From Planctomycetota bacterium (lineage in GTDB: Bacteria; Planctomycetota; MHYJ01; JACQXL01; CAKKQI01), in contig DAOWBV010000002.1 in the NCBI GenBank assembly GCA_030633885.1, forward strand, positions 1 to 47,435: DNA of 47,435 nt, given 5' to 3'. This document shows, piece by piece, positions 13,256-37,172 of this stretch. A program made the position numbers and the translations under genes. Each line of letters opens with the position of its first letter. Within the stretch, counting starts at the first letter, position 1. Under the pieces are notes generated by a model. That model searched no databases and was not told the origin of the DNA. It saw nothing but the letters and a program-made list of their open reading frames with translations.

Positions 13256-13258
13256 TCC

Positions 13259-15441: not shown

Positions 15442-15456
15442 TTTTTTAAAGTAGTT

Positions 15457-15589: not shown

Positions 15590-15618
15590 ATAACCTGATT
15601 ATTTAAGGAAAATATCCT

Positions 15619-16131
15619 ATGAGTCTGAAACAGATCAAAATGATGATTATGGATGTTGATGGGGTTTTGACTAACGGTCAGATCGCGCTGGATGACCGGG
15701 GGATCGAAATAAAAATGTTTTACGTTCATGACGGAAGCGGGATCAAGTACCTGCAGCGAGTCGGTTTAAAGACGGCGATCATTACCGCTCGGCGTTCCCG
15801 GGCAGTTACCCATCGGGCCCGGGACCTGGGGATCAAAGATGTTTACCAGAATTATAAAAATAAAGTTCCGGCTCTGAGGAAATTGTTAAAGAAGTATAGA
15901 TTAAAAAGTCGAGAAGTATGTTATCTTGGTGATGACCTGCCGGATATTCCGGTCATGAAGTTAGTCGGTTACCCGGTAGCCGTTCGTAATGCTCGACCGG
16001 AAGTAAAAAAATGCGCTCGCTATATCACGCGCCGGAATGGCGGCGACGGCGCTGTTCGGGAAATGGTCGAAAAAATCCTCCGGGCCCAGCGAAAATGGAA
16101 GCTCATTCTGCACCGCTACGAAAAAATATGA
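15619..16131 (+). CDS. kdsC: KDO-8-phosphate phosphatase KdsC (HAD family)
   Basis: MDVDGVLTNG motif I, YLGDDLPD motif, ~170 aa. Follows kdsD. Confidence 0.9.
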   Translation: MSLKQIKMMIMDVDGVLTNGQIALDDRGIEIKMFYVHDGSGIKYLQRVGLKTAIITARRSRAVTHRARDLGIKDVYQNYKNKVPALRKLLKKYRLKSREVCYLGDDLPDIPVMKLVGYPVAVRNARPEVKKCARYITRRNGGDGAVREMVEKILRAQRKWKLILHRYEKI

Positions 16132-21476: not shown

Positions 21477-24400
21477 TTATTCGACTTCTTTTTCCAGTTC
21501 AGATAATTCCAGGATCTCAGCTTTGATCATGATCATCATATTCTGCTTTTCTTTCGTTTTGGCTCTGCGCCGGAAAAACATACCGATAATTGGTATGTTT
21601 GATAGAAACGGAGTGCTCAGGCTTACATCCTGATCGACAACGTTTTTCATCCCACCGAGTAAAAGGGTGCCCCTATCCGGGACCATAATGCTGGATCGGA
21701 CTCGCTGGAGTTGGATCCAGGGAAGTTGTAATGAAAGCTGGTTATCATCAACACCCCGACCAGCCGTAATGCTGAAATTCTGCAGATCGATCAAACTGGC
21801 TAGAGTTGTGAAAATATGCAAAGTGATATATTTTCGGTCGTAACTCATGACCGGTTTAACATCCAGTACTACGCCGGTTTGAAAGGTCGCCAGAACCGTG
21901 TCATACGCCACTGCGCCGGAGACGACTTCCAGGTCCTGGATATAAGTCTGTTGTCTCAAGTAAGCCACGTGGGCCCGCTGGGCGTTGAAAACAACCAGTT
22001 TCGGGGCATCCAAAACTGTGCCTTTACCGGTTTTTTCTAAAGCCCGAAAAAGAATGTTTATCTGCGTGTTACCTAATATTGAATACTGAAGACCTATTCC
22101 CCCGGAATTAGTCAGCCTGACGCCCGGCGCGAATTGAGAAAAATTATTAGGGTTCAGAAAAGAATAAGCGCTTCGGAACCGCTGGTCACGGGCACCGCCG
22201 GGATTGGAGGTAAACCCGGCAGGATTGGGGGCAGGGAGAGTAGCATTCGAAGGATCCACATTATTCGGGGCGTCGGTCAGGTCGCGCCATGCGAACCCGA
22301 CATCTTCCAGAAAATCATCGGTCACCGCCAGGAAAATACTATCAACCGCGATCATGCTGCCGCTGAAAGAACGCATGGTTTGTAAAAATTCAGCGACTTT
22401 TCGTTGTATTTCCGGCGTGTTAATGACTATCAATCGATTGGATTCACCTATCTGTTCGATGCTGGCACCTTCGATTTCCCAATTGGACTGGACTGTATGA
22501 TTCTGAATCATTTCGATTAATTTCTCAATATCCGGTGTTGGCTTGGCGATAGTGTCAACCGGCGGAGCCTGCCAGCCTGGTCCGCCGCTGGCCGTCGGTA
22601 ATTCCATGCTCGGACCGGCGAAATCCGGTGCCTGACGGACGATATTATCAATACCGTAGACCCGGATTTGCAGATCGGCCGTGTTGCTGGCGGATTGAAC
22701 GATCCAGAGACTTTTATTTTTAAAAATGTAGGTTAAATCATACTGATTTAAAAGATGCTGCAGGCCGGCGCTCAGTGGTAATCCCCGGACGTTTAAACTT
22801 CTTTTTTCCTGCGGGACACGGGAATTATTGACTTCGGCGTCAAACTGGATCGGTATTTTATAAGTCTGCTGGAGATAGTCGATTACTTCGTACAAAGTAT
22901 TAGAACCATCCAAGTTGAAAGGATGTTTGATGCTTTCCAGTTTTCTTTTGATATCCAGGATATCAGGATCCTCAGCTATTTCGGTGGCGGTCAATCCGGG
23001 CGGCTTTCTTTTTTTGACTTCCTCCCAAATTCGGCGGTCGTACCGGATCAGTTGATCTTCCGCAAAAGGGATAGTAGAAACGTCAATGTCGTCAATAATT
23101 CGTTTCCAGTTTTCTACTTTCAATTCGACATAATCTTTCCAGGTTTTTTTATGCCGGGCCCGGATGCTGTCTTCTTTTAACTCCTGGGCCGGCCGGAAAG
23201 TGGGTGCCAGACGCAGGATCTTATCAGCCAGCCGTTCAGCATCTTCGTAATTAGTCTGTTGGAAATTTAAAATAGCTTCGTTGAATAATCTTTTTATTTT
23301 CTGGACTAATTCTTGCTGTCGTTTTTCTTCTTCCTTCCGGGCCAATTCTTCCGCGGCCCGTCGCTGTTGCTGGACCAAAACCGATTCGTGTTTCGCCTGA
23401 CGTGCCTTGACTTTTTTAATCCGTTGCCGGGCTTTGGTCCGGTATGCAGAAAGGCCGATGTCATAAGGCATCCAGCGCAGTTTTTCTTCCACGGTTTCAA
23501 ATTCCTTAAGAGCTTTCCGATATTCATTATCGCTTAAATAACGCTCGCCTTTCAGGAAATGGTTATTGATCTCCTTTTCTACCGCCTGAACTTTTATCCG
23601 CAGTTGGTTCTCCAGGAAATCCTTAACGGTTTGTATTTCGGCGGAACGGTCGCCCAGCAGATAATGGATTTTTCTTAACAATTCCTGAGCTCCTTTGTGT
23701 TGGGGGTTGAGCTCTAATGATTTTTGGATGTTATCCTCGGCTTGCTGGTACTGCGACTGTTTATATAATTTCAGGCCCGTTTCATAATATTTCTGGGCCA
23801 TAAACTCTTTTTCCTGCATCTTAATGGTTTTTTCCTGCTCTAGTTTTTCCATGACGCCGATCGGCGAATCCAAGGTGTCCGGTAATTCCGGTTTGACCAG
23901 GACAACCGCTGGTGCCGACGGTTTCGGGACCGTTGGCAAAGTTAAGGGCAAAAACGGGGTGGCCGGTGTGGTTGGCGTTGTCGGCGTCGTCGGAACGGAG
24001 GAGGTCGGGTTAAAAACCATTTTCCTGGAAGAAAATGGCAGGTCCGTGGAAAGGACTCCGAACGAGTCCGACACAGTAAAAAAATCTTCCGAAGTGATAC
24101 GAACACCCAGGGTCTGTCCGGCAACGGCCGTTTGTTTCAAGTCCGCCGTCACGAAACATATTTTCGGCTGTTCGGCGAGCGGTAAATTATTAATCGTCAC
24201 CTGCGACGTTCCGCTTTGAAAGACATCTTGACCGATTACTTGGTCTGTCATAGGATCCAAAGTGCCGTCGCCGTTATCCAGAAAGACTTTAATGGCGTTG
24301 ACGTCGGTATCATTCGCTGAACCGATCAGTTCCAATTTTAAACGAGACCAATTGACATCAGGTTCAGCCGAGGCAATTACTATCCGGGCCAGCTTGACGT

Positions 24401-24578
24401 TCTTGGTTCCGGCCGGGATTCTGTCCGGGGCAATATCCTGAACGATTACTTTAGTGCCGAACAAGTCGTCCATAATGCTCATGCCGGCCGATGATTTAGT
24501 CGGCGCGCTTCCTCCGCAACCGAATAGATTCAACAAAGCTACCAGGCTTAACGCTAACGGATAGTACTTCTTTAACAT
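21477..24578 (-). CDS. Secretin-family outer-membrane lipoprotein B (1033 aa). Domain order: Ig-like domain, PT-linker, TPR/coiled coil, N-domains, secretin domain.
   Basis: Lipobox LFGC. PTTPTTPTTPATP linker. TPR-like helices. Secretin C-terminal signature GGMKNVV...STPFLSNIPIIGMFFRRR...MMIMIKAEIL. Paralogous to the gene at 30551-33142. Confidence 0.8.
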   Translation of the reverse strand: MLKKYYPLALSLVALLNLFGCGGSAPTKSSAGMSIMDDLFGTKVIVQDIAPDRIPAGTKNVKLARIVIASAEPDVNWSRLKLELIGSANDTDVNAIKVFLDNGDGTLDPMTDQVIGQDVFQSGTSQVTINNLPLAEQPKICFVTADLKQTAVAGQTLGVRITSEDFFTVSDSFGVLSTDLPFSSRKMVFNPTSSVPTTPTTPTTPATPFLPLTLPTVPKPSAPAVVLVKPELPDTLDSPIGVMEKLEQEKTIKMQEKEFMAQKYYETGLKLYKQSQYQQAEDNIQKSLELNPQHKGAQELLRKIHYLLGDRSAEIQTVKDFLENQLRIKVQAVEKEINNHFLKGERYLSDNEYRKALKEFETVEEKLRWMPYDIGLSAYRTKARQRIKKVKARQAKHESVLVQQQRRAAEELARKEEEKRQQELVQKIKRLFNEAILNFQQTNYEDAERLADKILRLAPTFRPAQELKEDSIRARHKKTWKDYVELKVENWKRIIDDIDVSTIPFAEDQLIRYDRRIWEEVKKRKPPGLTATEIAEDPDILDIKRKLESIKHPFNLDGSNTLYEVIDYLQQTYKIPIQFDAEVNNSRVPQEKRSLNVRGLPLSAGLQHLLNQYDLTYIFKNKSLWIVQSASNTADLQIRVYGIDNIVRQAPDFAGPSMELPTASGGPGWQAPPVDTIAKPTPDIEKLIEMIQNHTVQSNWEIEGASIEQIGESNRLIVINTPEIQRKVAEFLQTMRSFSGSMIAVDSIFLAVTDDFLEDVGFAWRDLTDAPNNVDPSNATLPAPNPAGFTSNPGGARDQRFRSAYSFLNPNNFSQFAPGVRLTNSGGIGLQYSILGNTQINILFRALEKTGKGTVLDAPKLVVFNAQRAHVAYLRQQTYIQDLEVVSGAVAYDTVLATFQTGVVLDVKPVMSYDRKYITLHIFTTLASLIDLQNFSITAGRGVDDNQLSLQLPWIQLQRVRSSIMVPDRGTLLLGGMKNVVDQDVSLSTPFLSNIPIIGMFFRRRAKTKEKQNMMIMIKAEILELSELEKEVE

Positions 24579-24590
24579 TAGGACACCTCT

Positions 24591-25082
24591 TTATTCCGGG
24601 CTTTGCAGGTTTTCCGTTACCGGAGATTTAGCCGCAAATTCCACATTATCGATTCCCAAGCTCTGACAGATATTCAGGACGTGAACCACGCTCTGGAAGG
24701 GTACTTTGGGGTGGGGGTCGATTTTGAATGGGATCGGCCGTGGCGCATCTGCTTGCGAAGCGTGGATGGACGCCAATTCACCGGCTAATGCTGGCCAGGA
24801 AGCGAATTCACGGGTCCCGATCTTGATCCGCGTAAACAAGGTGCTTTTAATCGATTTGTCGAAGATCAACTGGATCCGGACTTCATCGATTATTGGATCA
24901 ACCACCACGGTACTTTCCAGTCCTTTATCTTTAGGTAAATGGGAAAAAAGCTTTCCTTCCAGTGATTTAAAAGGCGAAAGCATAAAGAAGATGAGCAACT
25001 GAAAAATCACGTCGATCATCGGGATCATATTCAGCTCGTCTTTTTTTTCTTCCGGTAAAGTACGTTTTTCTTTTCGGGCCAT
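24591..25082 (-). CDS. exbD: ExbD/TolR-family biopolymer transport protein (copy 2)
   Basis: NMIPMIDVIFQLLIFFM TM motif. The ATG at 25082 has a GAGGTG RBS, whereas the ORF-track start at 25100 is TTG. Confidence 0.85.
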   Translation of the reverse strand: MARKEKRTLPEEKKDELNMIPMIDVIFQLLIFFMLSPFKSLEGKLFSHLPKDKGLESTVVVDPIIDEVRIQLIFDKSIKSTLFTRIKIGTREFASWPALAGELASIHASQADAPRPIPFKIDPHPKVPFQSVVHVLNICQSLGIDNVEFAAKSPVTENLQSPE

Positions 25083-25107
25083 AATGTGGTCACCTCGCAA
25101 TAAAGTT

Positions 25108-25641
25108 TTAACCAGCGGGTTTAGTGGCGCCGATTTCGATTTTCCAGATCTTGGCGCGGCCGCAAGCGCTAAAGACTTTTTCTATGAACTTATAGGGGGC
25201 GCCGGCGTCTCCCCGGATCATTACCGGCCGGTTGGAAATTCCCCAGCCGCCCGATGAGGGTGGTGGGTCCCGATCAGTATCACCTTCGATCTTCAATTTC
25301 TGGATCAATTTTTCCATATTCACTGTTTCTCTTTTGATCCTGACCATCCAGTGTTTTTCGATATAACAGGGGTTGGTTAACTCTATTCGGCCCCGGTCGT
25401 TTGTTTTCAGTTGGTTGCATTCTTCATCCTCATCATGAACGACATTAATTATCAAACGGTCTTTATCCGGTTGATCATCTTCCACGGCTTCGGTGGCGAT
25501 GGGCAGGTAGACCCGTTCGATTTCCATCGCGGCGACTTCGGTGACCAGCATAAAGAAGATCAACAGCTGAAAGACCACGTCGATCATCGGGGTCATGTTA
25601 AACCCCGGGTCTTCGGCCATCTTCGCTTTTTTTATTTTCAT
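25108..25641 (-). CDS. exbD: ExbD/TolR-family biopolymer transport protein (copy 1, with an insertion in the periplasmic domain)
   Basis: NMTPMIDVVFQLLIFFML TM motif. Confidence 0.85.
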   Translation of the reverse strand: MKIKKAKMAEDPGFNMTPMIDVVFQLLIFFMLVTEVAAMEIERVYLPIATEAVEDDQPDKDRLIINVVHDEDEECNQLKTNDRGRIELTNPCYIEKHWMVRIKRETVNMEKLIQKLKIEGDTDRDPPPSSGGWGISNRPVMIRGDAGAPYKFIEKVFSACGRAKIWKIEIGATKPAG

Positions 25642-25658
25642 GGTCCAGTCCTTTTGAT

Positions 25659-26408
25659 TTATTGTTCCGCCGGGGCGTTTTCCACGGGCAGCTGTTTGAA
25701 TTTATCGATAAATTCACCGCAGATCATTCCGATTTCCAGAATATACCGGTTGACCTTATTCTTGAAAAAGAAATTGAAAGATAACGCCGGAATGGCGGCG
25801 ACCAGACCCAAGACGGTCGTGGCCAGCGCGGTGGTAATACCGCCGGCCAGCAGTTTCGGGCTCGGGGCGGCGACGCTTTTAATGACCATAAAGGAGTTGA
25901 TCATCCCGACGACGGTCCCGAGCAATCCGATCATCGGAGCCGTGTTACCGATCAGGGAAAGGTAACTGATCTTCTGGTGCAGTTTGTTGGCCTCTTCCAG
26001 GCCGGTTTCTTCCATGGCTTGGATCATCGCTTCGTAGCCGTCATTCATTTTGGACAGGGCCGCGCCGATAATGTTACAGAAAAAATTCTGGTTCGCGCTG
26101 CAGAGCGTGATCGCTTCTTCATATTGGCCTTCATCGACCAGCGCTTCCAATTCGGCGATGACCTCCGGTGGGCAGAGTTTGTTTCGGTTGATGTTCACAA
26201 AGTGTTCGATGACCAGCGCCAGGGCGGCGACCATTAACACGATAATGAAAGCGCCGATTGGCCCGCCGGCCACAACGTAGCGAGTAAATAAACTTTCCTT
26301 GGGAATATCTTGATCATCATCATCATCTTGGGCCATCAGCATTGGGCAGATGGCCATCAGGCCAACAAAAACAATTAACATCAACCAGATCACTTTTTTA
26401 CTTCCCAT
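25659..26408 (-). CDS. exbB: MotA/TolQ/ExbB-family proton channel with an N-terminal signal/periplasmic extension
   Basis: IGLLGTVVGMINSF and TTALATTVLGLVAAIPA motifs. AGGAGG RBS. Confidence 0.88.
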   Translation of the reverse strand: MGSKKVIWLMLIVFVGLMAICPMLMAQDDDDDQDIPKESLFTRYVVAGGPIGAFIIVLMVAALALVIEHFVNINRNKLCPPEVIAELEALVDEGQYEEAITLCSANQNFFCNIIGAALSKMNDGYEAMIQAMEETGLEEANKLHQKISYLSLIGNTAPMIGLLGTVVGMINSFMVIKSVAAPSPKLLAGGITTALATTVLGLVAAIPALSFNFFFKNKVNRYILEIGMICGEFIDKFKQLPVENAPAEQ

Positions 26409-26436
26409 AACGCCCTTTCCTCCTATCTAAATCTCA

Positions 26437-27567
26437 TTATTTAATTTTTTTTATCCAAGGTGAATTCGGATATCTGTTTTTCAGGTCATCGTAAAGGCCG
26501 TGAGCATAGTTTTTGTAAATCTTTCTTTTTTCTTTGGGTAAAGATTTACTTAACTTTTTAAAGCACTGGCCCGCCTGGAACATTGCTTTTTCCGCCTCAA
26601 ATGTTGACCCGTTATCTGGCGGGGGATACATTAAATAAGACCGGAGATAATTAAACAGGGGTTTCTTGTACATAGTCGGGTCCTGACCGTTGTTGGCTTC
26701 CTGAAAATTACAATCACCCAGTCCGTTATAAGCCCCGGCCCGCGCTTCAAAACTTTTATATTGTGAGATCACCGATTCAAATATTTTTTTTGCTTTGCCA
26801 TAATCCTTGTGAGCGGTAATATAACAACGACCTCGCCCGACCATTGCAATAGCTGCTATGTCTGGAAGATTTGTTGCCTGCTGGCTGATGTTGGCATAAA
26901 GCGGTTGAGCCTGGTCCGGCTGACCGTTGTTTTCGAGAATATTGGCTTTCAAGAGATCGAATTTCAGCAGTGATTCTTGATCCAAGCCAGCCGCGCTTCC
27001 TTGCTTTCGAGCCTCGACCATCGCGGCCACTGCTTTGGCGATATCCTTTTGGGCCAGATAACATTGGGCGATATTCTCGTAGGCTTCCCGGAAATAACGG
27101 GTATCCGGGATTTCTTTCAACAGGTGTTCATACGCTTTAACGGCCTGACCGAATTTTCGATCTGATTGATAACACCGGGCGATATTAAACAACATATGCT
27201 GTTTGAAAAGAGCCCGCGTTTTGCTGCTTTTGATGTCTTCCAGTATTTCCTGGTAAACCTTGATTGCCTTGTCGTACTCTCTTTGGCTCTGGCTGTTCTG
27301 AGCATTGAAATATTTGTACGGCTGGTTGGCGTATTTAATATTTTTGATTTCATTCAGTTTGAATTTTCTGGTTTTTAACTCCACGCCTTTAAAACTTTCC
27401 TTGATGATAGTTCCTTTGGCTTCCATGATCGTGGTGCCGTCTGTGGAATAAACGATCGTATCTTCCTGTTGGCCCTGGGCCAGTCCGTCTGGCGGACTAA
27501 GCATCTGGCCTAATAGCCCCAGGCTGAGCAGGATGAATATGGCGGCGATTTTTGTTGATCTCATCAT
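26437..27567 (-). CDS. Secreted TPR-repeat protein (376 aa)
   Basis: Signal peptide, a small N-terminal beta region, then multiple TPR-like A/Y/F-spaced helices. Confidence 0.7.
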   Translation of the reverse strand: MMRSTKIAAIFILLSLGLLGQMLSPPDGLAQGQQEDTIVYSTDGTTIMEAKGTIIKESFKGVELKTRKFKLNEIKNIKYANQPYKYFNAQNSQSQREYDKAIKVYQEILEDIKSSKTRALFKQHMLFNIARCYQSDRKFGQAVKAYEHLLKEIPDTRYFREAYENIAQCYLAQKDIAKAVAAMVEARKQGSAAGLDQESLLKFDLLKANILENNGQPDQAQPLYANISQQATNLPDIAAIAMVGRGRCYITAHKDYGKAKKIFESVISQYKSFEARAGAYNGLGDCNFQEANNGQDPTMYKKPLFNYLRSYLMYPPPDNGSTFEAEKAMFQAGQCFKKLSKSLPKEKRKIYKNYAHGLYDDLKNRYPNSPWIKKIK

Positions 27568-27617
27568 ACTAAACTTCCCCCTCTAAATTAGCAAGCGCTC
27601 ATTATAGCAAATTATTA

Positions 27618-30548
27618 CTACCGAGGCAAAATTTCTTTGATTTGTTTTTCCAGCTTCTTAAATTTGGTCTTAAAACCGTATTTGTCTTTATCAAGTTCCG
27701 GGGAAATAGTCATCCTCATGTCTTCAATTTTTTTTAATGCCTTAGCATATTCCCCTTGTTTATAATAAATCTCAATAATATGGTAACGGGCGTTCCACCA
27801 TTCTTCGAGGTATTCACCTTGTTCATTTTTGGGTAGAGAAATGACCAGCTCGCTCCATTCCCGCAGGGCGCTGGTCAAGTAACCTTCTTGCCCGGGCTTT
27901 TCCGCGATCTTTTCGTAAGCGGTCGCTGCCAAGGTCTTGATCAAGCCGTCATTCGGTCGTTCCTCTTTTAACCTCAAGATATGGTTCAGGGCCGAATCCC
28001 AATCATTAAGTTTCACGTAACACTTGACTAATTTATAGGATATCTTCCAGGCCGGTTGGCTCAACGGAACGTTGTCTTTTTTAAACTTATTGGTCAGGAG
28101 ACCCTTATAAATAGACACTGCTTCCCGGAAAAACTTTTCCCGGTTCAGTTCTGAAGCGGCCATATAAATCGTGTCGCCGATGGACAGGGCGGTCGATTCA
28201 TTAAGGAATGCTCCCTGTTCGATCCAGGTCAGCAGGAAATTAGCCAGTTTTTCCTGGGCTTGAGTGAATTTTTCGTGTTTTTTCGGGTTTTTGACTTTAA
28301 GTTCCGCTATTTTTGCCGGGCGATCCTCGGAAGGCACATCCGGCGGGATGATCTTGTTCGTGATCGCTTCGTAGCCCAGCACGATCAGCTGGATCGATGA
28401 GGTCGGTGGATCCAAAGTATTTTTCTCGCTGTAATCCAGTAGTGATTTAAGGTAAACTTCCGCTTTGTCCAGATCGTTCATCCAAACGGCCGCTTTTATT
28501 TTTGACCGAAAGACCTGAGTAATGATCTGATGCCGGCCGTCATATTTGGTTTCCATCCCTTTCAGTACAGTGAAAACCCGACGGTATTTTTTTATTTCTT
28601 CATGCAGATAGATCCGGGCCAGGTAAGTTTTTGAATACATGATAAAATCAGTCGCTTTCGGATCACTTTCGAATTTCTTGACAAAATTATTGATATTTAT
28701 ATCGGCCTGATGATAAGCTTTTTTTGCTTCTTTTTTTAACTGGTTTTTTTTGGTTTTATTCTTGGCGGTCAAATAATTATTCCATTGTTTTTTAGCGGCC
28801 TGAAAATACATATAACCCACGTGAAATCGGGAGTTGAGGTATTTCGGGGAAGACTCCGGTACTTCGCCGAATAGCTTGGCCGCCAGCAGGTATTCCTTTT
28901 TGATTTTGTGTTCGGTCGCGATGGGATACTTGATCTCCCGGGTTGCCTCACTTTCCGGCCAATTTTTGTTCAAATACTTGATCAAGTAACGGTATTTTTC
29001 GGTGTCAGCATTTTCCTCTTTGTTTTTACCTTTTAACTGGTGCCCCATGATTAAATATGTTTCCGCGGCCATCTTGACCGCCCGCGGGGCCCATAATTTA
29101 TCGTTCTGGTCTTTGACCTCGCGAAACTTCTGTTCCAGTGTTTCGTAGAACATGGCTGCTTCATAAAGACGATAGAGCGGTTCGCCGTCTAACGTGCCAT
29201 AATTTCGCCAGCGGCAGGCGTTACCCATTAACCAGAGTGCTTCCGGTAGATAGGTTTCTTTGATTTTGCGCGGGGCTTTTTCCAGGGCGGCCATTAATCG
29301 CTGGCCGTGTCGGACCACTTCATCATAATTGCCCCGGTCAAAAGCGTCCCGGATCGTGTTTAAACGGATATCCGGTGGGATGGCGATGCCCATCCGGCTG
29401 AATTCATCCTGTTTGTCTTTGGCCTTTCGTTTGGCCGGTCCGTTGGATTTGATGATTTCCTGGACTAGGGCAATCGCTTCGGAGCCCCGGCCAAGATTGG
29501 CGTAAGCCGTCGCCTTTTCCATAAGGGCCAGTTGAGTCAGAGATTCATTTTTAGAATCGGGATACCATTTTAATGTTTCTTCCGCGCTCTGGATGGCCTG
29601 ATTGAACTCCTGGTTGGCGTTGGCGGTCATGGCCAGGTGATAAAAACCTTTTTGAATAGTGCTTTGATAATCCATTAACCAACCCTGACGTTCCTGGGTG
29701 GTACGACTTTCTTTTTTGATCTTTTCGATCAATTTATGGGAGGCGATCTTAAAATAGATCTGCGCTTTTTTATAATCACCCAATTCATAATAACAGAGAC
29801 CGCAGAAATCAGCCACGTCAAAAGAGATAATCATTTGTCCGTATTTTAACAGGAAGCTCCGGAACAATTTGATTCCTTCTTTTAAAAGAACTTCTCGTTC
29901 CTTGTTATTTTTATCATAGAGCAGAGCGTTGAAATATAAAGTGACCGGATGTGAACGGGATGCGCCTACCAGATTGTTTTCCAACCGTTTACGTTCCGCC
30001 GCAAGTTTTTTATCTTTCGTACCCCACGGGATTTTGTTGATTCGTTTTTTATAAACCTTGATCATGACCTTAAAATAATCGGCCGCTTGGCTGTAGACTG
30101 CCTGAGTTTCTTTCTTCAGCTTTTCCTTAACTTCGGCGTCAGTTTCGTTCTTCATCCAGGCGACCAGGAAACGGCCTTTATCTTGCAACAGTTCGCCGAT
30201 TTCGAATTTGGCGTCTGTCACCGCGTCATCATCCTGGTTCGGGCTGTTTTTAATAAAAGTTTCGATTAATTTAATGGTTGTATCTAGGCGCTCTTTGCGT
30301 TCTTTCGGCGTCCGGGAAAAATTGATGCCGTATTTTTTTATCCGGATCCTGGTTAACCGGGCCTGGGTTTTAAGATTGTCCGGTACGCCAGTGATGGTGG
30401 CGTAGAAATCATCGGCCATCAGAATATAACCGTTTTCGGCTAGTTTTTCGACAAACTTCAGATCGGCCTGGACATCAGCCCGGCTGATGGAGGTGGCCAG
30501 TGTTATCAGGCCGACTGTGATGAATAAAATAATGATCGTTTTTTTCAT
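27618..30548 (-). CDS. Secreted large TPR-repeat protein (976 aa)
   Basis: Signal peptide ending ...TSISRA. All-helical sequence with repeated TPR-like W/Y/A patterns throughout. Confidence 0.7.
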   Translation of the reverse strand: MKKTIIILFITVGLITLATSISRADVQADLKFVEKLAENGYILMADDFYATITGVPDNLKTQARLTRIRIKKYGINFSRTPKERKERLDTTIKLIETFIKNSPNQDDDAVTDAKFEIGELLQDKGRFLVAWMKNETDAEVKEKLKKETQAVYSQAADYFKVMIKVYKKRINKIPWGTKDKKLAAERKRLENNLVGASRSHPVTLYFNALLYDKNNKEREVLLKEGIKLFRSFLLKYGQMIISFDVADFCGLCYYELGDYKKAQIYFKIASHKLIEKIKKESRTTQERQGWLMDYQSTIQKGFYHLAMTANANQEFNQAIQSAEETLKWYPDSKNESLTQLALMEKATAYANLGRGSEAIALVQEIIKSNGPAKRKAKDKQDEFSRMGIAIPPDIRLNTIRDAFDRGNYDEVVRHGQRLMAALEKAPRKIKETYLPEALWLMGNACRWRNYGTLDGEPLYRLYEAAMFYETLEQKFREVKDQNDKLWAPRAVKMAAETYLIMGHQLKGKNKEENADTEKYRYLIKYLNKNWPESEATREIKYPIATEHKIKKEYLLAAKLFGEVPESSPKYLNSRFHVGYMYFQAAKKQWNNYLTAKNKTKKNQLKKEAKKAYHQADININNFVKKFESDPKATDFIMYSKTYLARIYLHEEIKKYRRVFTVLKGMETKYDGRHQIITQVFRSKIKAAVWMNDLDKAEVYLKSLLDYSEKNTLDPPTSSIQLIVLGYEAITNKIIPPDVPSEDRPAKIAELKVKNPKKHEKFTQAQEKLANFLLTWIEQGAFLNESTALSIGDTIYMAASELNREKFFREAVSIYKGLLTNKFKKDNVPLSQPAWKISYKLVKCYVKLNDWDSALNHILRLKEERPNDGLIKTLAATAYEKIAEKPGQEGYLTSALREWSELVISLPKNEQGEYLEEWWNARYHIIEIYYKQGEYAKALKKIEDMRMTISPELDKDKYGFKTKFKKLEKQIKEILPR

Positions 30549-30550
30549 AA

Positions 30551-33142
30551 CTAAAATTGTTTTCTTTCTTCTTCGGTCATAATAGTGATTTTTGATTTAA
30601 TAATGATCATCAGAACGTTTTTTCCTTTACCGGTCGCTCTTCGCCGGAACAGCATGCCCAGGATTGGGATCTTGGAGAGGAGCGGGACGGCTGATTGTGA
30701 GTAGATCTCAGATCCGTGCGCGTAACAACTGATCATGATGGTTCCACCGTCCGGGACGATCACGTTGGTTCTCAGACGCTGGTATTCCATGTCCGGTATT
30801 TCGATGCTCGGGGTGCCGCCGCCGACTAGGTTGGGGTTAAGTGTTCTCAGATTCGGCGGCGGTGGTACCAAGCTGGAGATCGATGGCCGTAATTCCAGCG
30901 TTATGTATTTCAAGTCCGCGCTGATACTCGGCCGGACATCCAGCACCACGCCTTGAGCAATCACGTCCGGGATCGGGTCAACCAGCACCCGGCCCGGTAA
31001 GGCCAGGATAGTGTCGTAATCCCGGATATAAGTAAACTGTTGAGCAATATAAATATGGGCTCGCTGACCGTTAAAAATCGTTATTCTCGGGGCGCGTAAC
31101 GTTTTAGACCGTACGTCTTTTTTGACTGCTTGCAATATCATGGAAACGTCTGTATTATCCAGGATCGTGTAACTCAAGGTACTGCCGCCGGTATTACCAA
31201 GAACGCTGGTGAAAAATCGGTTGGCTAACAGGTCTCCGCCCAAGCTGGTTTCGATCCGGCCTGACAACTCGCGGTTTCCTCCGCTATAAAGACCGTAAAT
31301 ACCTGAGGATAGCCCGCCGTCCTCGCCGGGATCATTGGCAAAAGCCGGTCCGTCCGGAGCGTTCGTTCCGAAATAAGCCGGTAACACGGGAGCAGGCGAC
31401 TGAAGTCCTCGCATGCTTACTCCAATGTCTTCCAGAAAAGAGTCGACTACTTCAATGAACCGGGCTTCGATAGTGACTACCATGTCCATGGCGGTCCTGA
31501 TTTCTGTCAGCAAAGTTTCGATCTGCGACTGGATCCGCGGTAAGTGTTTAACCACCAGGACGCCACTGCTTTCCTGGAACTCGATACTGAACGGGTCTTC
31601 CCAACCTTCGGTTTCACTTTTGGCGATATTATCTTCGATTAGTTTCTTTAGTTCATCACCGGAAATCCGCGGGATTTCACTTTCTTCTTCCATCATTTCT
31701 TCTTCTTCTTCCAACCCGATTTGGGGACCAGGGAAGTCGACGATCGGGATGGTCAGATCCAGAATATCATACCAGCTGGTGACTACCTTTGATGCTTTGA
31801 TTTTTTCGTTGCTGGTAATAATGATTACTCCGTCCTGAACTATGTAGCCCCAGTCCTGAGATTTTAGCATTTCACTCAGGGCGACCCGTAACGGGATGTC
31901 AACGACATTATAAGTAACCTGTTCTTCCGCGCTGACCTCGGAGCTGATAATGATATTGATACCCGGGACATAATCGCGGACGAACTGGATGATCTCGGCC
32001 AGAGAAGCCCCTTCACCGAAGGGAAAGTTTAATCGCCGGTCAAGTAACAGTTCGGCCTCCTGGTTAAGCGGAGAAGGCGGTTTTTCTTCTTTCATTTTCC
32101 GGGGTCCGCGCCGAAGAGTTTTTTTCCATTTTTTTTTGTCCGGGAACTTAACGACCTCCACCTGAGGAATGGTTTTCTGGTACCAAAATTCAAATGTTTT
32201 TTTCCATTCTTCGGACAGGGTCTTGGTATTTAATTTCCGGAACTCGGCTTGCTTAGTAGCCAAAGCGATATCCTTTAACTTTTTCGCCACTCTATTCGAC
32301 GGATCTATACTCAGGATTTTGTTGCACAACCGGACCGATTTGTCATAATTTTCTTTTTCAAACTGTTCCTGAGATTGCCGGAAAAGCATTTCAATCTTGT
32401 GGACAAAATCTTCCCGGCGTTTGATTTCTTCTTCCTTGGTCCGGCGGCGGGCTTCCGCTTCGTGTTTCCGACGCAGGGCGATCGCCTGGGACTCTTTTTT
32501 CCCCTGGTTCTTTTTTAAATAATCCTTGGCTTGCTTCTGGTAAACCGAGAGGTCCGCGTGATAAGGAAACCATTCTACCGATTCGATCACCCATTTGAAT
32601 TCTTCTTCCGCTTCATCGTATTTCTGATCTTCGTAGGCCCGAATACCTTTGTATAAATGGTTTTCCACTTCAAGCCGAGCTTGTTGAATTTTGACTTTGA
32701 TCGCATTGATCAAGTTACGGGAAAGTCGGCCAATATTACCGTCCACGCTTTCGCCCTGGGCACTGCGGACATCATTCAGCTTGTCTTCGGCCTTGGGATG
32801 ACCCAGTTGACTGGCGCGTTCAAAATGTTTTTTCGCCTTTTCGTAGTCGCCTTCCAGGTAAAATTTCACGCCGATTCTATAATAACGTTCGGCCAGAACT
32901 GTTTTTTGTTCATTACCGATCTTCCGATCATCTTCCAGTTGCCTTATGATATCTGAATAAGGATCGGCGACCGGTTGCCCCAGTCCAAATTCCGGCAGAG
33001 CGCTGCCGTTGGCTTCCGGTAAGGCGTTTTTTTTCAGCGGGGCCGGGGCGACTGCTTCCGGGGTACTGCCGCACCCGCCCAGTAATAATAAAAAGATCAG
33101 TCCGAACTGGCTAACCATTAAAATTTTCAAGTTTTTCATCAT
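30551..33142 (-). CDS. Secretin-family outer-membrane lipoprotein A (863 aa). Domain order: TPR/coiled coil, N-domains, secretin domain.
   Basis: Lipobox LGGC. Secretin signature AVPLLSKIPILGMLFRRR...VLMIIIKSKI. The N-terminal TPR block aligns by eye with secretin B. Confidence 0.8.
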   Translation of the reverse strand: MMKNLKILMVSQFGLIFLLLLGGCGSTPEAVAPAPLKKNALPEANGSALPEFGLGQPVADPYSDIIRQLEDDRKIGNEQKTVLAERYYRIGVKFYLEGDYEKAKKHFERASQLGHPKAEDKLNDVRSAQGESVDGNIGRLSRNLINAIKVKIQQARLEVENHLYKGIRAYEDQKYDEAEEEFKWVIESVEWFPYHADLSVYQKQAKDYLKKNQGKKESQAIALRRKHEAEARRRTKEEEIKRREDFVHKIEMLFRQSQEQFEKENYDKSVRLCNKILSIDPSNRVAKKLKDIALATKQAEFRKLNTKTLSEEWKKTFEFWYQKTIPQVEVVKFPDKKKWKKTLRRGPRKMKEEKPPSPLNQEAELLLDRRLNFPFGEGASLAEIIQFVRDYVPGINIIISSEVSAEEQVTYNVVDIPLRVALSEMLKSQDWGYIVQDGVIIITSNEKIKASKVVTSWYDILDLTIPIVDFPGPQIGLEEEEEMMEEESEIPRISGDELKKLIEDNIAKSETEGWEDPFSIEFQESSGVLVVKHLPRIQSQIETLLTEIRTAMDMVVTIEARFIEVVDSFLEDIGVSMRGLQSPAPVLPAYFGTNAPDGPAFANDPGEDGGLSSGIYGLYSGGNRELSGRIETSLGGDLLANRFFTSVLGNTGGSTLSYTILDNTDVSMILQAVKKDVRSKTLRAPRITIFNGQRAHIYIAQQFTYIRDYDTILALPGRVLVDPIPDVIAQGVVLDVRPSISADLKYITLELRPSISSLVPPPPNLRTLNPNLVGGGTPSIEIPDMEYQRLRTNVIVPDGGTIMISCYAHGSEIYSQSAVPLLSKIPILGMLFRRRATGKGKNVLMIIIKSKITIMTEEERKQF

Positions 33143-33155
33143 TAGTCTCCCTGGT

Positions 33156-34145
33156 TTACTTTTCTTTTGTTCTGGGGACAGTCGCTTTATAAATGTTCCC
33201 TTTTTTATCCGCGTAACTGATAATATATATTAATTTCGTGATGAATGTATCACTGTTCCCGACTTTTACTTTCTCGGTATCTTTAGCGATATCGGTTATT
33301 TTGTATGGAGTTTCAAAAGAAGTACCGGCGCCAATAAGTTCACCTTTTTTGTAACTGCGATAAGCGTTTTTCCATTCCCCATTTTTGAATTTTTCTATTT
33401 GAATATATATCTTCATGCTTGATAATACATCAAGAGGTTTAATTTTTACATTATTAAGTGTCGTAACTGACTTGGACCGGCTCTTTTTGAAAGTAGTTTC
33501 TTGCGTGGTCACGTTTTTTCCGTCGGTTAGGGCCGCCACGTAATAAGTATAAGTGGTCCGGCCGGCGACCGTGTCATCGATATATTTATAATTGCCTTTA
33601 GCCGTGGTGGTGATGGTATCAGTTTTCATCGCTACGATCAACTTGAAATCTTTGGCTTCAACCGTGCTCCGGTAGATTTTGTAACCAGTCGTTTTGGCAA
33701 TGGTTTTTGAGGGCTCTTCGTTTTTATTCCAAACGATGGTTACCCGATCAGGCATTTTTGGATCGATCAGAATATCGCTGATCGTTGGCGCGATCAGGGT
33801 TGTTACTTGGGGTGGAGGCGGCCTGATATAATTGACTTCAAAAAACGGCTGGCGGTACATCATCCAGGCGTTGGCTGGGGTCGGTTTTTCCCGTGACTCA
33901 CCGTCCCAGATCTTTTTGATTTTTTCGTAAGTGGTTGGCGGAACCGGTTTCCTGGCCGGCGGTAGTTTGTTAGTTATTATTTTTTCTTTGACGGTATCGA
34001 TATCCGCGGCCAGTTGATTTAACTCCGGGTTGTTTGCTTGATTCGGGGAAGAAGCCAGGAAGAAATAGATCAACGTCAGGACCGCGGCGCCCAGGATGAT
34101 TCGTTCCGGATAATTACTCGTCATATTTTTTATTTTGTTGAACAT
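33156..34145 (-). CDS. Bitopic membrane protein: N-terminal TM helix, Pro-rich spacer, FN3-like beta domain, C-terminal beta domain (329 aa from the ATG at 34145)
   Basis: TM helix IILGAAVLTLIYFFLA. Pro-rich PPARKPVPPTT...RPPPPQ. FN3-like VTIVWNKNEEP...GYKIYRS...YTYYVAAL. The start at 34145 avoids a 71-nt overlap with the upstream gene. Confidence 0.55.
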   Translation of the reverse strand: MFNKIKNMTSNYPERIILGAAVLTLIYFFLASSPNQANNPELNQLAADIDTVKEKIITNKLPPARKPVPPTTYEKIKKIWDGESREKPTPANAWMMYRQPFFEVNYIRPPPPQVTTLIAPTISDILIDPKMPDRVTIVWNKNEEPSKTIAKTTGYKIYRSTVEAKDFKLIVAMKTDTITTTAKGNYKYIDDTVAGRTTYTYYVAALTDGKNVTTQETTFKKSRSKSVTTLNNVKIKPLDVLSSMKIYIQIEKFKNGEWKNAYRSYKKGELIGAGTSFETPYKITDIAKDTEKVKVGNSDTFITKLIYIISYADKKGNIYKATVPRTKEK

Positions 34146-34149
34146 AATT

Positions 34150-35115
34150 TCAGCCTTTTTTCGAGCCGGTTTTTTTAGGAGCAGGCAGTGGAGTTTCTTT
34201 AATTTCAAAGTCCATGACATTGCCGGTCAAAACTAATTGGACCAGTGGTTTTTCCAGCGGGGGTGGCGACCACTTGCCTTTTTCGTTCTCGTAAAGAGTT
34301 TTGCTTTCTTTTTCCGGGTTCCGGCTGATCTCTTCCGGGATTCGAGTGATATCAATACCTTTCAAGGTCACGAAGATATTGTCCGGGCCTGGGTTCAAGA
34401 CATGTTCGACAAATTTCGGCAGGACATCATAAGACAGGTAGACATGGGCTTTAAAATAAATGTAAGCACCCAGATTATTCGGCAACTTCTCAATACCGCC
34501 GTGTTTGGATTTTTTGAATTTTATGTAAACACACTGTTTTACTTCTGAATCCACCATGGCCTGTTTAAGTTTGTTCTGGATCCAGAAACGTTTCTGGAGG
34601 ATCTTGAAATTATTCAGGTTAGGTTCGAACCCCAGCGTGTGGCTTTCCTGCGTATAATTCATTTCACTTGTTTCCCGCAACGGAACATCACCGATCGTTA
34701 TTTCTTTTTCTTTCAATAGGTTGATAAAACTTGATGTTTGAGAGCCGTAACGGGTGTCAAAATCACCTTCATCCGGTAGGCCGTTTTTGAGCGGGAGGCC
34801 GGGAAACCATTCCTCTAACTTCGCGTCTGCTTGCCGATAATAATCCACGCATTTTCGGTTTTCTTCTTCGGTTAGTTGGACCCAATCATTATATTCTTTG
34901 GCCCAAGCCCGGCTCGGTAGATCGGGTCCTTTATTGACATATTTTTCCAGGGCCTCTTTCCTTCCGGGCAGTTCCGCTGAACCCATTAATTGGTCTTCCA
35001 GTGTGGCGATTTCGTTCCAGCGGTTATTAATATCAAGCACAAAAAATGCCACAAAAATCACGCCTGACACAAGCATGGTAATCCAAAAAGGACTTCTTAA
35101 CGTGCTTAGTTTCAT
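34150..35115 (-). CDS. Bitopic coiled-coil protein, PilO/GspM-like and possibly Amuc_1100-like (321 aa)
   Basis: N-terminal TM helix FWITMLVSGVIFVAFFVL followed by a coiled coil. AGGAG RBS. Sits between a PilM-like gene and a secretin gene. The family assignment is by architecture only. Confidence 0.5.
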   Translation of the reverse strand: MKLSTLRSPFWITMLVSGVIFVAFFVLDINNRWNEIATLEDQLMGSAELPGRKEALEKYVNKGPDLPSRAWAKEYNDWVQLTEEENRKCVDYYRQADAKLEEWFPGLPLKNGLPDEGDFDTRYGSQTSSFINLLKEKEITIGDVPLRETSEMNYTQESHTLGFEPNLNNFKILQKRFWIQNKLKQAMVDSEVKQCVYIKFKKSKHGGIEKLPNNLGAYIYFKAHVYLSYDVLPKFVEHVLNPGPDNIFVTLKGIDITRIPEEISRNPEKESKTLYENEKGKWSPPPLEKPLVQLVLTGNVMDFEIKETPLPAPKKTGSKKG

Positions 35116-35287
35116 TCAATGTCTCCTACGGGGACAGTTTTTGCCCCGTTTATAATTGTAGCAAATTTTGTACCACAACAGAGGGTAGAAGTCTAATATA
35201 TCGAATTATATCTAAAATAAAGCGATTTCCTATGTTTTTTCATTGAGTAATGTAATCATATTTAACATTGTGTAAAATATTATTACA

Positions 35288-37114
35288 TTATTTATTAATT
35301 AATGGTATTTCCATGTTAACTTCAAATCGGTAATACTTTGGATCGTTAATCGAATCGACAATATTGATTTTTTTCTCTTCATTCGGGGTGACCAATTCCC
35401 GGACAATGCGGTTAGTGCCGATCAATTTCGGGGCCCGCTCTTCGCATTTGAATTCTTCGGCCAGCGGTTTAACCAGCTTATTCTTAATAAACATTTGTGA
35501 TCCGACCGGATCCGGTCGCCCGTCTTTTTCGTGATAGATCATGCCGCAGATTATTTTTAAAACAACGACTGGATTAGTTTGACGGTTGGCTCCTTTGACA
35601 AATTTCTTCTCCGCGTTTAGACTTAATAACCAGATTTTATTTTGTTCGAAATGTTGCAGTATTTCGTCGTCTTTGGGCACGTCGCTTTCCATGAACCCCT
35701 TGTCGAAATTCGGCGCGTTTTCCAGCATGACTGGTATTTTATTAAGAGCGTTTAACAGTTTTACCCAAATATTAAGATCCGGTTCAATATACGATATAGC
35801 GGCCAGCTGTTGTTGGATCGGCGAAATTTTTTGGATGGCCTGATTGACTTCCCTGTTGATCTTTTGTGCTTTTTCGATGGTTTCTTCAGCTTTCTGGTCG
35901 AGCGCCTGCAAATTTTCATAGGTTTTTTTGCTGGCCGAATGCAAGATCATCAGGATCAGCGCGATTACTACCGCGATGGCTGCGATCACCGGTTTCTTTT
36001 TCGAAATGGCTTTTTCTTTGATGGCTTCCTGTGATAGCAGGTTGATACGGTTATTGGTTAATTCTAATCCCTGGGTGGCCAGGCCCAGAGCTACGCCCAG
36101 GGAGGGCATATTCGTGTGTAATAATTGCTGGCCATTCGGTGACCGGGCCTGGATCGCCCGGGCGGTCGGCTCGATCTTGTTCAAGCGCGTAACCCGTATC
36201 GGTTGTAACTGTAACCGCTGGGCCAGGAATTCTTCAAAAAAGACTGTCTGCGAGGCATTGCCGGCCAGGACGATCTTATCAAAATTAATTGCTTTGCCTA
36301 AAGTGGAAAGACTTTTATAATAACCGATTGAACGGTGAATTTCGCTGACCAGGTCTTTGAGGACCGGTTGAATGGCGTTAAAGATTTTGCCTGCTTCCGC
36401 GCCTTGACCGACATTGACTTTTTTTTGTTCTGCTTCCGGAAACGCCAGATCGAATTTTTGCTGAAGGGCTTTGGTGATATCATTTCCGACGATCGGAATG
36501 TTCCGGATCCAGAATGTGTCTTCGTCTACCACGATCAGGTCCGTGTTGTTGGCCCCGATATCCAGGATGATAAAACTCTGGCCCAGATCGTAATCGTACA
36601 TGATAAAATTATACAGCGCGATCGGGTTCAGCTGGAGGATGTCGATATTGATCTTGGCCAGGGTCAGCAGGGAAAGGAACTGATCGACCAGTTCCTTCTT
36701 GATGACGAATAAGCCGACGTCCAGTTCTTCGTCCGGTTGGCTCGGTTTTTCTTTCGTCGCCTGGTAACGCCAGACCACTTCATTCAACGGGAAAGGGATA
36801 TGTTGTTGGGCTTCAAACTGAATGATCTCTTTTAACCGGCCCGGTGAAACCGGCGGTAGTTTGATGAAACGGGCAATCGCTGAATGGGCCGGCAGGGAGG
36901 CGACGATCTGGTCGCCCCGCAATTTGTGGCGGCTGGTGAAAGTGCTCAGGACTCCCCGGATTTCCTGTTCCAGGCTGTGTTCGTCCCGGCCCGGTGCGAT
37001 CGAATACTCGATCACATCAATGTCGGTTAACTCGACTTTACCTTTGATAAATTGGAGCCGGACCGCCTTGAGCGATGATTTACTGACGTCTAATCCCCAG
37101 GCACCTTTCGGCAT
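35288..37114 (-). CDS. PilM-like actin-fold domain fused to a TM helix, PilN-like coiled coil and a periplasmic domain (GspL-like architecture, 608 aa)
   Basis: WGLDVSKSSLKAVRL and ILDIGANNTDLIVV (PilM/FtsA-like phosphate motifs). TM helix VIAAIAVVIALILMIL at about aa 375. Coiled coil. GGAGG RBS. Confidence 0.75.
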   Translation of the reverse strand: MPKGAWGLDVSKSSLKAVRLQFIKGKVELTDIDVIEYSIAPGRDEHSLEQEIRGVLSTFTSRHKLRGDQIVASLPAHSAIARFIKLPPVSPGRLKEIIQFEAQQHIPFPLNEVVWRYQATKEKPSQPDEELDVGLFVIKKELVDQFLSLLTLAKINIDILQLNPIALYNFIMYDYDLGQSFIILDIGANNTDLIVVDEDTFWIRNIPIVGNDITKALQQKFDLAFPEAEQKKVNVGQGAEAGKIFNAIQPVLKDLVSEIHRSIGYYKSLSTLGKAINFDKIVLAGNASQTVFFEEFLAQRLQLQPIRVTRLNKIEPTARAIQARSPNGQQLLHTNMPSLGVALGLATQGLELTNNRINLLSQEAIKEKAISKKKPVIAAIAVVIALILMILHSASKKTYENLQALDQKAEETIEKAQKINREVNQAIQKISPIQQQLAAISYIEPDLNIWVKLLNALNKIPVMLENAPNFDKGFMESDVPKDDEILQHFEQNKIWLLSLNAEKKFVKGANRQTNPVVVLKIICGMIYHEKDGRPDPVGSQMFIKNKLVKPLAEEFKCEERAPKLIGTNRIVRELVTPNEEKKINIVDSINDPKYYRFEVNMEIPLINK

Positions 37115-37143
37115 TTTTGGCCTCCATTATGTATTAAACATAC

Positions 37144-37172
37144 ACTATATTATTAATAATTAACGTGGTCAA
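37144..37172 (-). promoter_or_regulatory. Sigma70-type promoter for the PilM-like/secretin/ExbBD operon
   Basis: On the minus strand: TTGACC (37172-37167), a 17-bp spacer, then TATAGT (37149-37144). It lies 29 nt upstream of the ATG at 37114, with a GGAGG SD in between. The -35 box abuts the MITE-like terminus. Confidence 0.55.

Follow-up and report, generated by a model that had tools for sequence, protein, structure and literature searches.

The 47,435-nucleotide stretch of Planctomycetota DNA analyzed here (positions 1 to 47,435 of contig DAOWBV010000002.1; hereafter the window) carries on its minus strand a ten-gene cluster in which an ExbB-ExbD-ExbD proton-motive-force (PMF) stator and two secreted tetratricopeptide-repeat (TPR) proteins are encoded between two paralogous lipoprotein secretins, behind a PilM-type inner-membrane platform. 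Secretins are the textbook exit gates of the ATPase-driven type II and type III secretion systems (T2SS and T3SS), type IV pili (T4P) and filamentous phage, and ExbBD/TolQR stators are the textbook energizers of TonB-dependent receptors and of the Tol-Pal system. Judged by comparison across genomes, the linkage of the two is real, conserved and probably functional, and it is neither unprecedented nor obligatory; the same ten genes recur in the same order in relatives, which argues that the arrangement is more than chance. Comparative genomics thereby lends strong evidence to a secretin machine coupled to the PMF, and we regard the chances as about even that the cluster encodes a PMF-energized, secretin-based conduit, probably for macromolecule uptake, a reading that draws on its protein families and on analogy with the mucin-import loci of Akkermansia.

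Components of the cluster

The cluster consists of ten consecutive minus-strand open reading frames (ORFs) that span positions 37114 to 21477 and follow one another in the order given here, with the product, its length in amino acids (aa), its transmembrane (TM) features and the main basis for its assignment:

35288..37114, minus strand: PilM fusion, 608 aa, a PilM-like actin-fold protein that continues into a TM helix and, in the periplasm, a coiled-coil/alpha-beta part; related to the Amuc_1101 family
34150..35115, minus strand: g2, bitopic inner-membrane protein in the PilN/PilO position, 321 aa; distant Amuc_1100-family relative
33156..34145, minus strand: g3, bitopic protein with a TM helix, Pro-rich linker, FN3 domain and C-terminal beta-rich region, 329 aa; Amuc_1099/PilP/GspC position
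30551..33142, minus strand: Sec1, lipoprotein secretin, 863 aa, its secretin domain preceded by a TPR/helical N-terminal extension and an N0-like domain; Pfam, NCBIfam and fold
27618..30548, minus strand: T9, secreted TPR solenoid protein, 976 aa, first gene of a five-gene module; TPR Pfam match, signal peptide
26437..27567, minus strand: T3, secreted TPR protein, 376 aa; TPR_12 at 8.2e-14, signal peptide
25659..26408, minus strand: ExbB/TolQ-type proton channel subunit, 249 aa; PF01618 at 2.1e-28
25108..25641, minus strand: ExbD1, ExbD/TolR paralog 1, 177 aa; PF02472 at 1.9e-20
24591..25100, minus strand: ExbD2, ExbD/TolR paralog 2, 169 aa from a TTG or 163 aa from an ATG at 25082; PF02472 at 9.8e-15
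21477..24578, minus strand: Sec2, lipoprotein secretin and full-length Sec1 paralog, 1033 aa; Pfam and PDB matches

A preliminary description, made from the letters of the window alone, had proposed these ten ORFs with intergenic gaps of 172, 4, 13, 2, 50, 28, 17, 25 and 12 nt. All ten are present, and the gaps are reproduced with two internal ATG starts, that of g3 at 34145 (the full ORF reaches 34220, giving 354 aa and overlapping g2) and that of ExbD2 (the first start of whose ORF is the TTG at 25100). Every one of its family assignments was borne out by Pfam and NCBIfam profile searches; Pfam assignments given here are matches above curated cut-offs, and topologies derive from simple hydropathy analysis.

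The stator looks functional from its sequence, since all 131 ExbD sequences keep the protonatable Asp of the TM helix and all 56 ExbB homologs keep both Thr165 in TM2 and Thr198 in TM3. ExbB, with three TM helices and a signal-like N-terminus, reaches 99.1 bits against MotA_ExbB (PF01618; cut-off 22.9), and its best NCBIfam model is TolQ (2.5e-22), albeit at 79.7 bits versus an equivalog cut-off of 221; its matches in a database search were almost all from Planctomycetota. ExbD1 and ExbD2 score 73.7 and 55.2 bits against PF02472 (cut-off 25.4) and 38.7 and 33.4 bits against TolR models, for which the equivalog cut-off is 127.3. The T9 family is small and specific, a search of 1.84 billion representative proteins giving 273 matches at E<=1e-3, and next to a T9 gene there is nearly always a T3-like gene downstream, usually with ExbB-ExbD-ExbD after it. 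T3 itself matches tol_pal_ybgF at 1.3e-07 (32 bits versus a cut-off of 90) and shows weak YbgF/CpoB- and BamD-like TPR matches.

Both secretins exceed the cut-off of 27.5 bits for Pfam Secretin (PF00263), Sec1 with 81.4 bits (7.6e-23) and Sec2 with 88.8 bits (3.9e-25); both match TPR_2 (1.1e-09 and 7.5e-10, respectively) and secretin chains in the PDB, and Sec2 additionally shows a weak STN match (2.2e-4). The lipobox reads LGGC in Sec1 and, by eye, LFGC in Sec2. The best NCBIfam model for Sec1 is Amuc_1098_fam (1.1e-25), and the HofQ and PilQ models match both secretins weakly and far below their cut-offs (81 and 71 bits versus 284 for the PilQ model TIGR02515). In the AlphaFold2 (AF2) model of Sec1, a helical region (residues 61-320) precedes an N0-like alpha/beta region (360-460), both at a predicted local distance difference test (pLDDT) score of 80-95 (82-90 for the latter), and a further alpha/beta domain (495-565), with the secretin domain itself of low confidence in this monomer prediction, and Foldseek relates the model to the periplasmic domains of InvG, GspD and EscC and to the N0 domain of PilQ. 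Sec1 and Sec2 share 28% identity over 830 aa (E 2e-97), and across loci the upstream and downstream secretins form separate clusters within lineages, which points to an old duplication with both copies kept. Sec2 also has an extra N-terminal beta-rich domain (residues ~35-235; 24000-24480) that is missing from Sec1, gave no family match and is followed by a Pro/Thr-rich linker (PTSSVPTTPTTPTTPATP...).

The inner-membrane platform begins with the PilM fusion, which matches Pfam PilM_2 (1.3e-31, 110 bits versus a cut-off of 27), exceeds the cut-off of TIGR01175 pilM (141.1 versus 133 bits), has NF045709 Amuc_1101_fam as its best NCBIfam model (4e-66) and matches the PilM chains 3jc8 and 2ych in the PDB; its single TM helix spans residues 376-394. 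The window's g2, with a TM helix at residues 9-27, has no Pfam or NCBIfam match, and a g2 profile run against the PDB yielded spurious TM-helix matches only; among its orthologs, 5 of 20 match NF038287 Amuc_1100_fam (best 8.1e-07), and one, at locus L002, has a weak precomputed match to PF28028 Amuc_1100. In g3 the TM helix (residues 16-34) is followed by a 75-residue stretch that holds 15 prolines, and a profile of 20 orthologs run against the PDB retrieves FN3 domains (titin FN3, 5.4e-13), so that the earlier description of this protein as Pro-rich and FN3-like holds on both counts; the g3 ortholog of locus L084 has a weak precomputed fn3 match, and the single-sequence AF2 model of g3 reaches a pLDDT of 38. 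Neither g2 nor g3 matches the PilN, PilO or PilP families even at E<=10, and a concatenated g2+g3 query against the protein database returned no match.

With tight gaps and no terminator-like site on the minus strand within any intergenic gap of the cluster, the proposal of one apparent transcription unit stands as far as the sequence goes, and co-transcription of the ten genes can be inferred from it. The near-consensus promoter proposed upstream of the first gene is indeed the best match of the region, yet it is to be read as a pattern match only, because promoter-like matches are not enriched over shuffled sequence (32 observed versus 23.9 +/- 6). The two candidates of interest are:

37144..37172, minus strand: candidate sigma-70-like promoter TTGACC-17-TATAGT, 5' of the first gene; 10/12 matches, top of the region
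27601..27629, minus strand: candidate internal promoter TTGCCT-17-TATAAT with an upstream TG (extended -10), at the T9/T3 junction; 10/12 pattern match

Conservation and modularity across Planctomycetota

Homologs of Sec1 occur in Planctomycetota and Candidatus Brocadiia metagenome-assembled genomes (MAGs), and a scan with the Sec1 alignment, taking one genome per species, yielded 79 loci, almost all of them Planctomycetota by title, with a few labeled "bacterium" or "uncultured bacterium" and one, L042, labeled "Proteobacteria bacterium"; they include Kuenenia stuttgartiensis (Brocadiia) and the cultured Engelhardtia mirabilis Pla133 (Planctomycetia; L025), whose cluster lies at NZ_CP036287.1:2,310,411-2,332,852. 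The classified set of 86 also contains three loci anchored on ExbB that have no full-length secretin. Gene order at each locus was established with phmmer and jackhmmer searches of the window proteins against all six-frame ORFs, and the loci fall into these classes:

Stator between two secretins: 26 of 86 loci
One secretin in range, with the stator adjacent: 30 of 86 loci
Both secretins, no stator: 11 of 86 loci
One secretin and no stator seen, about half of these with flanks too short to judge: 16 of 86 loci
No full-length secretin, module present, found via the ExbB anchor: 3 of 86 loci

The proposed linkage between secretins and ExbBD is thus conserved in relatives, the stator lying between or beside secretins in 56 of the 86 loci. 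The consensus order is PilM, g2, g3, secretin, T9, T3, ExbB, ExbD, ExbD (sometimes with one or two more ExbD genes), secretin and a HAD-hydrolase gene. All ten genes in the same order, with the HAD gene, are found on a 470-kb Brocadiia contig at 46% secretin identity (L001), and the full ten-gene order is kept at 44-48% secretin identity (L001, L005, L007, L084), while the order secretin, T9, T3, ExbB, ExbD, ExbD, secretin, HAD persists down to 27%, including in Engelhardtia mirabilis and Kuenenia. A reverse test anchored on ExbB homologs recovered the secretin-flanked cluster twice (L084, L085). The flanks, by contrast, vary, with glycogen genes at L001, DegT/radical-SAM/UDG genes at L002 and cysK and ribD in the window; since flanking genes differ between lineages, it is the cluster itself that is the conserved unit, and selection rather than mere inertia seems to have kept its genes together. 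The number of ExbD copies after ExbB ranges from two to four by lineage (L085, 10796-13128; also L011, L025, L031, L033, L034, L036 and L040).

Judged by these gene neighborhoods, the operon is a composite of two evolutionary modules, A (an envelope-spanning scaffold of the PilM fusion, g2, g3 and the two secretins) and B (T9, T3, ExbB, ExbD and ExbD). In the Brocadiaceae MAG locus L003, whose Sec1 is 64% identical to that of the window, Sec2 follows Sec1 after ~295 bp and the five-gene module is missing (3507-9605), and Sec2 likewise directly follows Sec1 in L002 and L020. Only T9 is left between the secretins of L035, and only T3, with neither T9 nor ExbBD, in L009, L015, L018, L026, L027, L029 and L030; all of these last seven except L018 carry a tandem duplication of g3 (in L009, for instance, at 5302-7522 and 10513-11892).

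Module B, in turn, is not dedicated to secretins, because it is also found without them. The complete T9-T3-ExbB-ExbD-ExbD set occurs without secretins in L083, in L086 and on the P0131 contig, and in a neighbor-joining tree the secretin-less ExbB proteins of L083 and L086 nest within the secretin-linked clade. At L089 (10001-16664), distant T9-like and T3-like genes with ExbB-ExbD-ExbD stand as the module alone; at L087 (10001-16275), a 1437-aa TPR protein, perhaps a T9+T3 fusion, is directly followed by ExbB-ExbD-ExbD; at L090 (10001-14688), a T9-like gene is followed by a T3-like gene with no stator; and L088 (10001-14592) holds a T9-T3 pair on a contig that ends soon after T3, none of the four having secretins nearby. 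The T9-like proteins of L087-L090, all on metagenomic contigs, are 1105-1437 aa long.

Because the module recurs without secretins and the T9 family is small and specific, T9-T3 with ExbBDD is, on this comparative evidence, a portable evolutionary unit, a self-contained power pack of which one copy is usually nested in the secretin pair. A strict one-to-one dependency between stator and secretins is rejected by the 11 stator-less loci together with the secretin-less modules. The occurrence of the power pack with at least two other sets of neighbors suggests that PMF could be delivered to the outer membrane independently of TonB.

Three of the loci call for separate comment. At L083 (1906-15011) and L086 (1915-12478), two proteins of ~560-585 aa with a weak squalene-hopene-cyclase-like repeat are encoded upstream of the module, and conserved proteins of ~330 and ~540 aa without assignment and an H+-pyrophosphatase downstream of it, with flanks of this kind on the P0131 contig as well; the context may mark a further envelope machine that draws on this power pack. 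On a contig binned as Bdellovibrionales, L082 (3783-5500) carries T3-ExbB-ExbD, with an ExbB 52% identical to that of the window, followed by short secretin-like ORF fragments and then by hydrogenase genes; it may reflect decay of Sec2, chimeric assembly or the mis-binning of a contig from a planctomycete.

Proposed mechanism, rival explanations and genomic surroundings

Davey et al. (2023, Nat Microbiol 8:1450) are reported to have found that Akkermansia cells accumulate mucin only with MUL genes that encode pili and a periplasmic complex, and genetics ties both the MUL1 and the MUL2 locus to mucin import. For the cluster we infer a physical coupling of stator and secretins as well as a direction and a substrate of transport. 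In our working model, the ExbB/ExbD complex would turn the PMF into movement of the ExbD periplasmic domains; T9 and T3, which we propose as transducers because the cluster has no TonB or TolA, would carry that work across the wide periplasm to the TPR and N0 regions of the secretins; the transmitted movement would gate the secretin pore or drive a macromolecular substrate through it; and the secretins would be tied to the inner membrane by the PilM-g2-g3 platform. By analogy, the most likely direction appears to be inwards, bringing polymers such as glycans into the periplasm, because the pilus-like and the ExbBD-adjacent MUL1 loci of Akkermansia are both needed for mucin uptake.

A more ambitious version, which we put forward as possible and with more doubt than belief, is that the cluster encodes an apparatus for the import of whole polysaccharides or other macromolecules into the enlarged planctomycete periplasm, possibly the basis of the crateriform structures, in which a secretin pore serving as import channel is gated or driven by ExbB/ExbD via dedicated TPR transducers and not by TonB. 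If so, it would be a secretin machine that the PMF, and no cytoplasmic ATPase, powers, and one that works inwards. In some Planctomycetota, according to a 2024 genomic survey, polysaccharides are imported "via an unknown mechanism"; the survey also refers to crateriform structures that bind dextran. Members of the phylum rank as major degraders of polysaccharides and are reported to import polymers selfishly. The cluster offers a concrete, deletable candidate for polymer uptake, present in the cultured E. mirabilis Pla133.

Several absences bear on these readings. Neither the ten proteins nor the window ORFs of at least 150 aa match TonB or TonB-dependent receptor families, and the 47-kb window holds no PilB/GspE ATPase or pilin, no TolA, TolB or Pal, and no ComEA or ComEC. 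The gene tables of the window, L001, L002, L084 and L085, read without a dedicated pilin search, show neither an Amuc_1102-like pilin gene nor a gene for cargo within the cluster or next to it.

A number of findings weigh against a coupled machine. The closest relative, L003, is among the 11 loci that carry both secretins without a stator, and ~8 further single-secretin loci with ~10-kb flanks show none either; module B, or T9-T3, also occurs without secretins beside unrelated genes (L083, L086, L087, L089, L090); ExbB and both ExbDs score best against TolQ/TolR, which fits a Tol-like envelope function, with T3 and also T9 weakly similar to YbgF/CpoB; and genes for an ATPase and pilins may lie in another part of the genome, pilMNOPQ operons normally lacking their own. 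The same points speak for the alternative, which we consider rather unlikely, that two independent systems share the locus without mechanical coupling, an ATPase-driven T4P/T2SS-like machine and a Tol-like or TonB-less envelope energizer that settled between the secretin genes and serves constriction, lipid homeostasis or the tethering of the outer membrane. That alternative sits poorly with a nested position kept phylum-wide while the surroundings change, with gaps as tight as those between the nested genes (2-50 nt) and free of terminator-like sites, and with the retention of T3 between the secretins where ExbBD is gone, as in the L009 group. Akkermansia genetics joins the ExbBD-adjacent and the pilus-like loci in one phenotype, and the missing TolA, TolB and Pal likewise count against a separate Tol-like system. 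On genomic grounds alone, the phylum-wide nesting of the stator between secretin genes argues that coupling is possible.

The stator could also replace the ATPase in an outward-directed device that releases proteins or polysaccharide (holdfast or capsule), or that assembles, extends, retracts or rotates a pilus-like fiber, a reading that we hold to be improbable. Characterized secretin systems (T2SS, T3SS, T4P and filamentous phage) all move cargo outwards or house a fiber, and module A has its relatives in a pilus-like locus, whereas ExbBD/TolQR-type stators otherwise energize outer-membrane import or envelope maintenance. The interpretation of MUL2 as an attachment pilus (ISME J 2026) would favor such a device, yet the sole genetics for a homologous system points to uptake, and the gene tables read show no pilin-like or cargo gene. 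Scarcely credible to us is a competence device with PilQ/HofQ-like secretins and PMF-driven DNA translocation, which the weak HofQ and PilQ matches of both secretins would suit, as would the reported effect of an Acinetobacter TonB2 mutant on natural transformation (PMC8811193); the HofQ and PilQ scores remain far below their cut-offs, Amuc_1098_fam is the best secretin model, and ComEA, ComEC, pilin and ATPase are all missing from the window. We therefore retain the PMF-energized conduit as the preferred reading at the strength given at the outset.

The surroundings of the cluster are those of core housekeeping genes, with rplI, dnaB, bamA, skp, lpxD, lpxC-fabZ, lpxA, lpxB, kdsD, kdsC, an lptC-like gene and valS on one side and cysK, ribD (the window genes upstream of the PilM fusion), cation antiporters, purE, greA, a MiaB-like gene and rsgA on the other. 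A mobile or phage element was rejected on account of this context (bamA-lpx-kds-valS, cysK, ribD) and of a uniform GC content of 0.42-0.53. The downstream neighbor of Sec2 is:

20659..21387, minus strand: TIGR02253-family HAD hydrolase; 170.3 bits versus a cut-off of 169.75

A HAD gene follows the second secretin in most Planctomycetota loci (for example L001, 21728-22489, and L084, 15037-15786), usually on the strand of the cluster and on the opposite strand in L051, L059, L075 and L077; the protein, with E-values of 1e-80 to 1e-110, is far better conserved than those of the cluster. It may belong to the system. About 3 kb from this HAD gene, with valS (17741-20530) in between, lies an outer-membrane biogenesis supercluster (4917-17738, plus strand) of bamA, skp, lpxD, an lpxC-fabZ fusion, lpxA, lpxB, kdsD (SIS+CBS), a kdsC-like HAD gene and a gene for a 575-aa LptC-domain protein, interrupted by an opposite-strand DUF374 gene and a GFO/IDH/MocA oxidoreductase gene. 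Elsewhere in the window, ORF 6-1505 (plus strand) encodes a membrane protein with a C-terminal phosphotransferase system (PTS) EIIA-type domain (Pfam PTS_EIIA_2 match), and 39580-41781 (minus strand) a 733-aa cation/proton antiporter-like protein that, by eye, appears to have a similar PTS EIIA-type C-terminus.

Comparison with known systems

With the T4P PilMNOPQ system the cluster shares a PilM above the TIGR01175 cut-off and the succession of two bitopic proteins and a secretin, and with T2SS GspL the joining of an actin-fold domain in the cytoplasm to a TM helix plus a part in the periplasm; the N0, N-ring and secretin domains are shared with the secretins of both by fold. It differs from both in having no PilN, PilO or PilP matches and secretins whose scores fall well short of the equivalog cut-offs for PilQ and GspD, and in the absence from the window of pilins, a prepilin peptidase and a PilB/PilT/GspE ATPase. 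We know of no T4P or T2SS operon in which an ExbBD stator and a pair of large TPR proteins are embedded.

The ExbB/TolQ and ExbD/TolR families and their proton-relay residues are shared with the TonB-ExbB-ExbD and Tol systems. Two ExbD paralogs are also found in the ExbB-ExbD1-ExbD2 systems of Xanthomonas and Bacteroidota, and a periplasmic TPR partner recalls CpoB, or TtpD of the Vibrio TonB2 system; the conserved partners in our cluster are instead secretins and two family-specific TPR proteins. A canonical TonB system was rejected since the window holds no TonB or TonB-dependent receptor, as was a canonical Tol-Pal system, given the missing TolA, TolB and Pal and the TolQ, TolR and YbgF scores below cut-off. 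The Agl-Glt/Nfs machines of Myxococcus combine a TolQR-type stator with TPR-rich periplasmic proteins and outer-membrane parts that are beta-barrels and not secretins, and their likeness to the cluster is one of analogy only.

The closest counterpart is found in Akkermansia, which belongs, like the Planctomycetota, to the Planctomycetes-Verrucomicrobia-Chlamydiae (PVC) superphylum. The homologs of module A there are Amuc_1101, Amuc_1100 and Amuc_1098, and Amuc_1101-1100-1099-1098 presents the same order of PilM, 1100-like protein, a further protein and secretin as the cluster, although the scores, far below the equivalog cut-offs (224 versus 650 bits for Amuc_1101_fam, 89.8 versus 750 bits for Amuc_1098_fam), mark the window proteins as distant relatives rather than orthologs. 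Mul1A and Mul1B are presumably TPR proteins, and MUL1 may formally include the ExbB and ExbD genes. In A. muciniphila, MUL2 is the pilus-like locus amuc_1099-1102, with the secretin Amuc_1098 adjacent, and mul1A is Amuc_0544, named a mucin transport gene, near which an annotation table places Amuc_0546 (ExbD/TolR) and Amuc_0548 (MotA/TolQ/ExbB). A locus containing ExbB/ExbD and hypothetical periplasmic proteins is thus needed there for the same process as a pilus-like locus, which means that the PVC literature already contained a functional link between a locus beside ExbBD genes and a PilM/secretin locus, the two being separate. The statement in the preliminary description that no described system pairs such a stator with secretins was therefore overstated; its protein families, the linkage and the single apparent unit stand, and the absence of precedent does not.

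What distinguishes the planctomycete cluster is that it forms one apparent operon where MUL1 and MUL2 lie ~550 locus tags apart, that it has two paralogous secretins, each with a TPR extension, and that the Amuc_1102-like pilin gene of MUL2 is not found upstream of PilM in the window, L001 or L002, where L001 and L002 have unrelated metabolic genes. Our literature search returned no description of a fused two-secretin planctomycete operon. By analogy, the cluster resembles a fusion of the two mucin-import loci of Akkermansia, and with the same kinds of components that Akkermansia keeps at separate loci it lends independent support to the poorly understood MUL model. It is best classed as an Akkermansia MUL-type system, fused, with two secretins and no pilin gene in the cluster.

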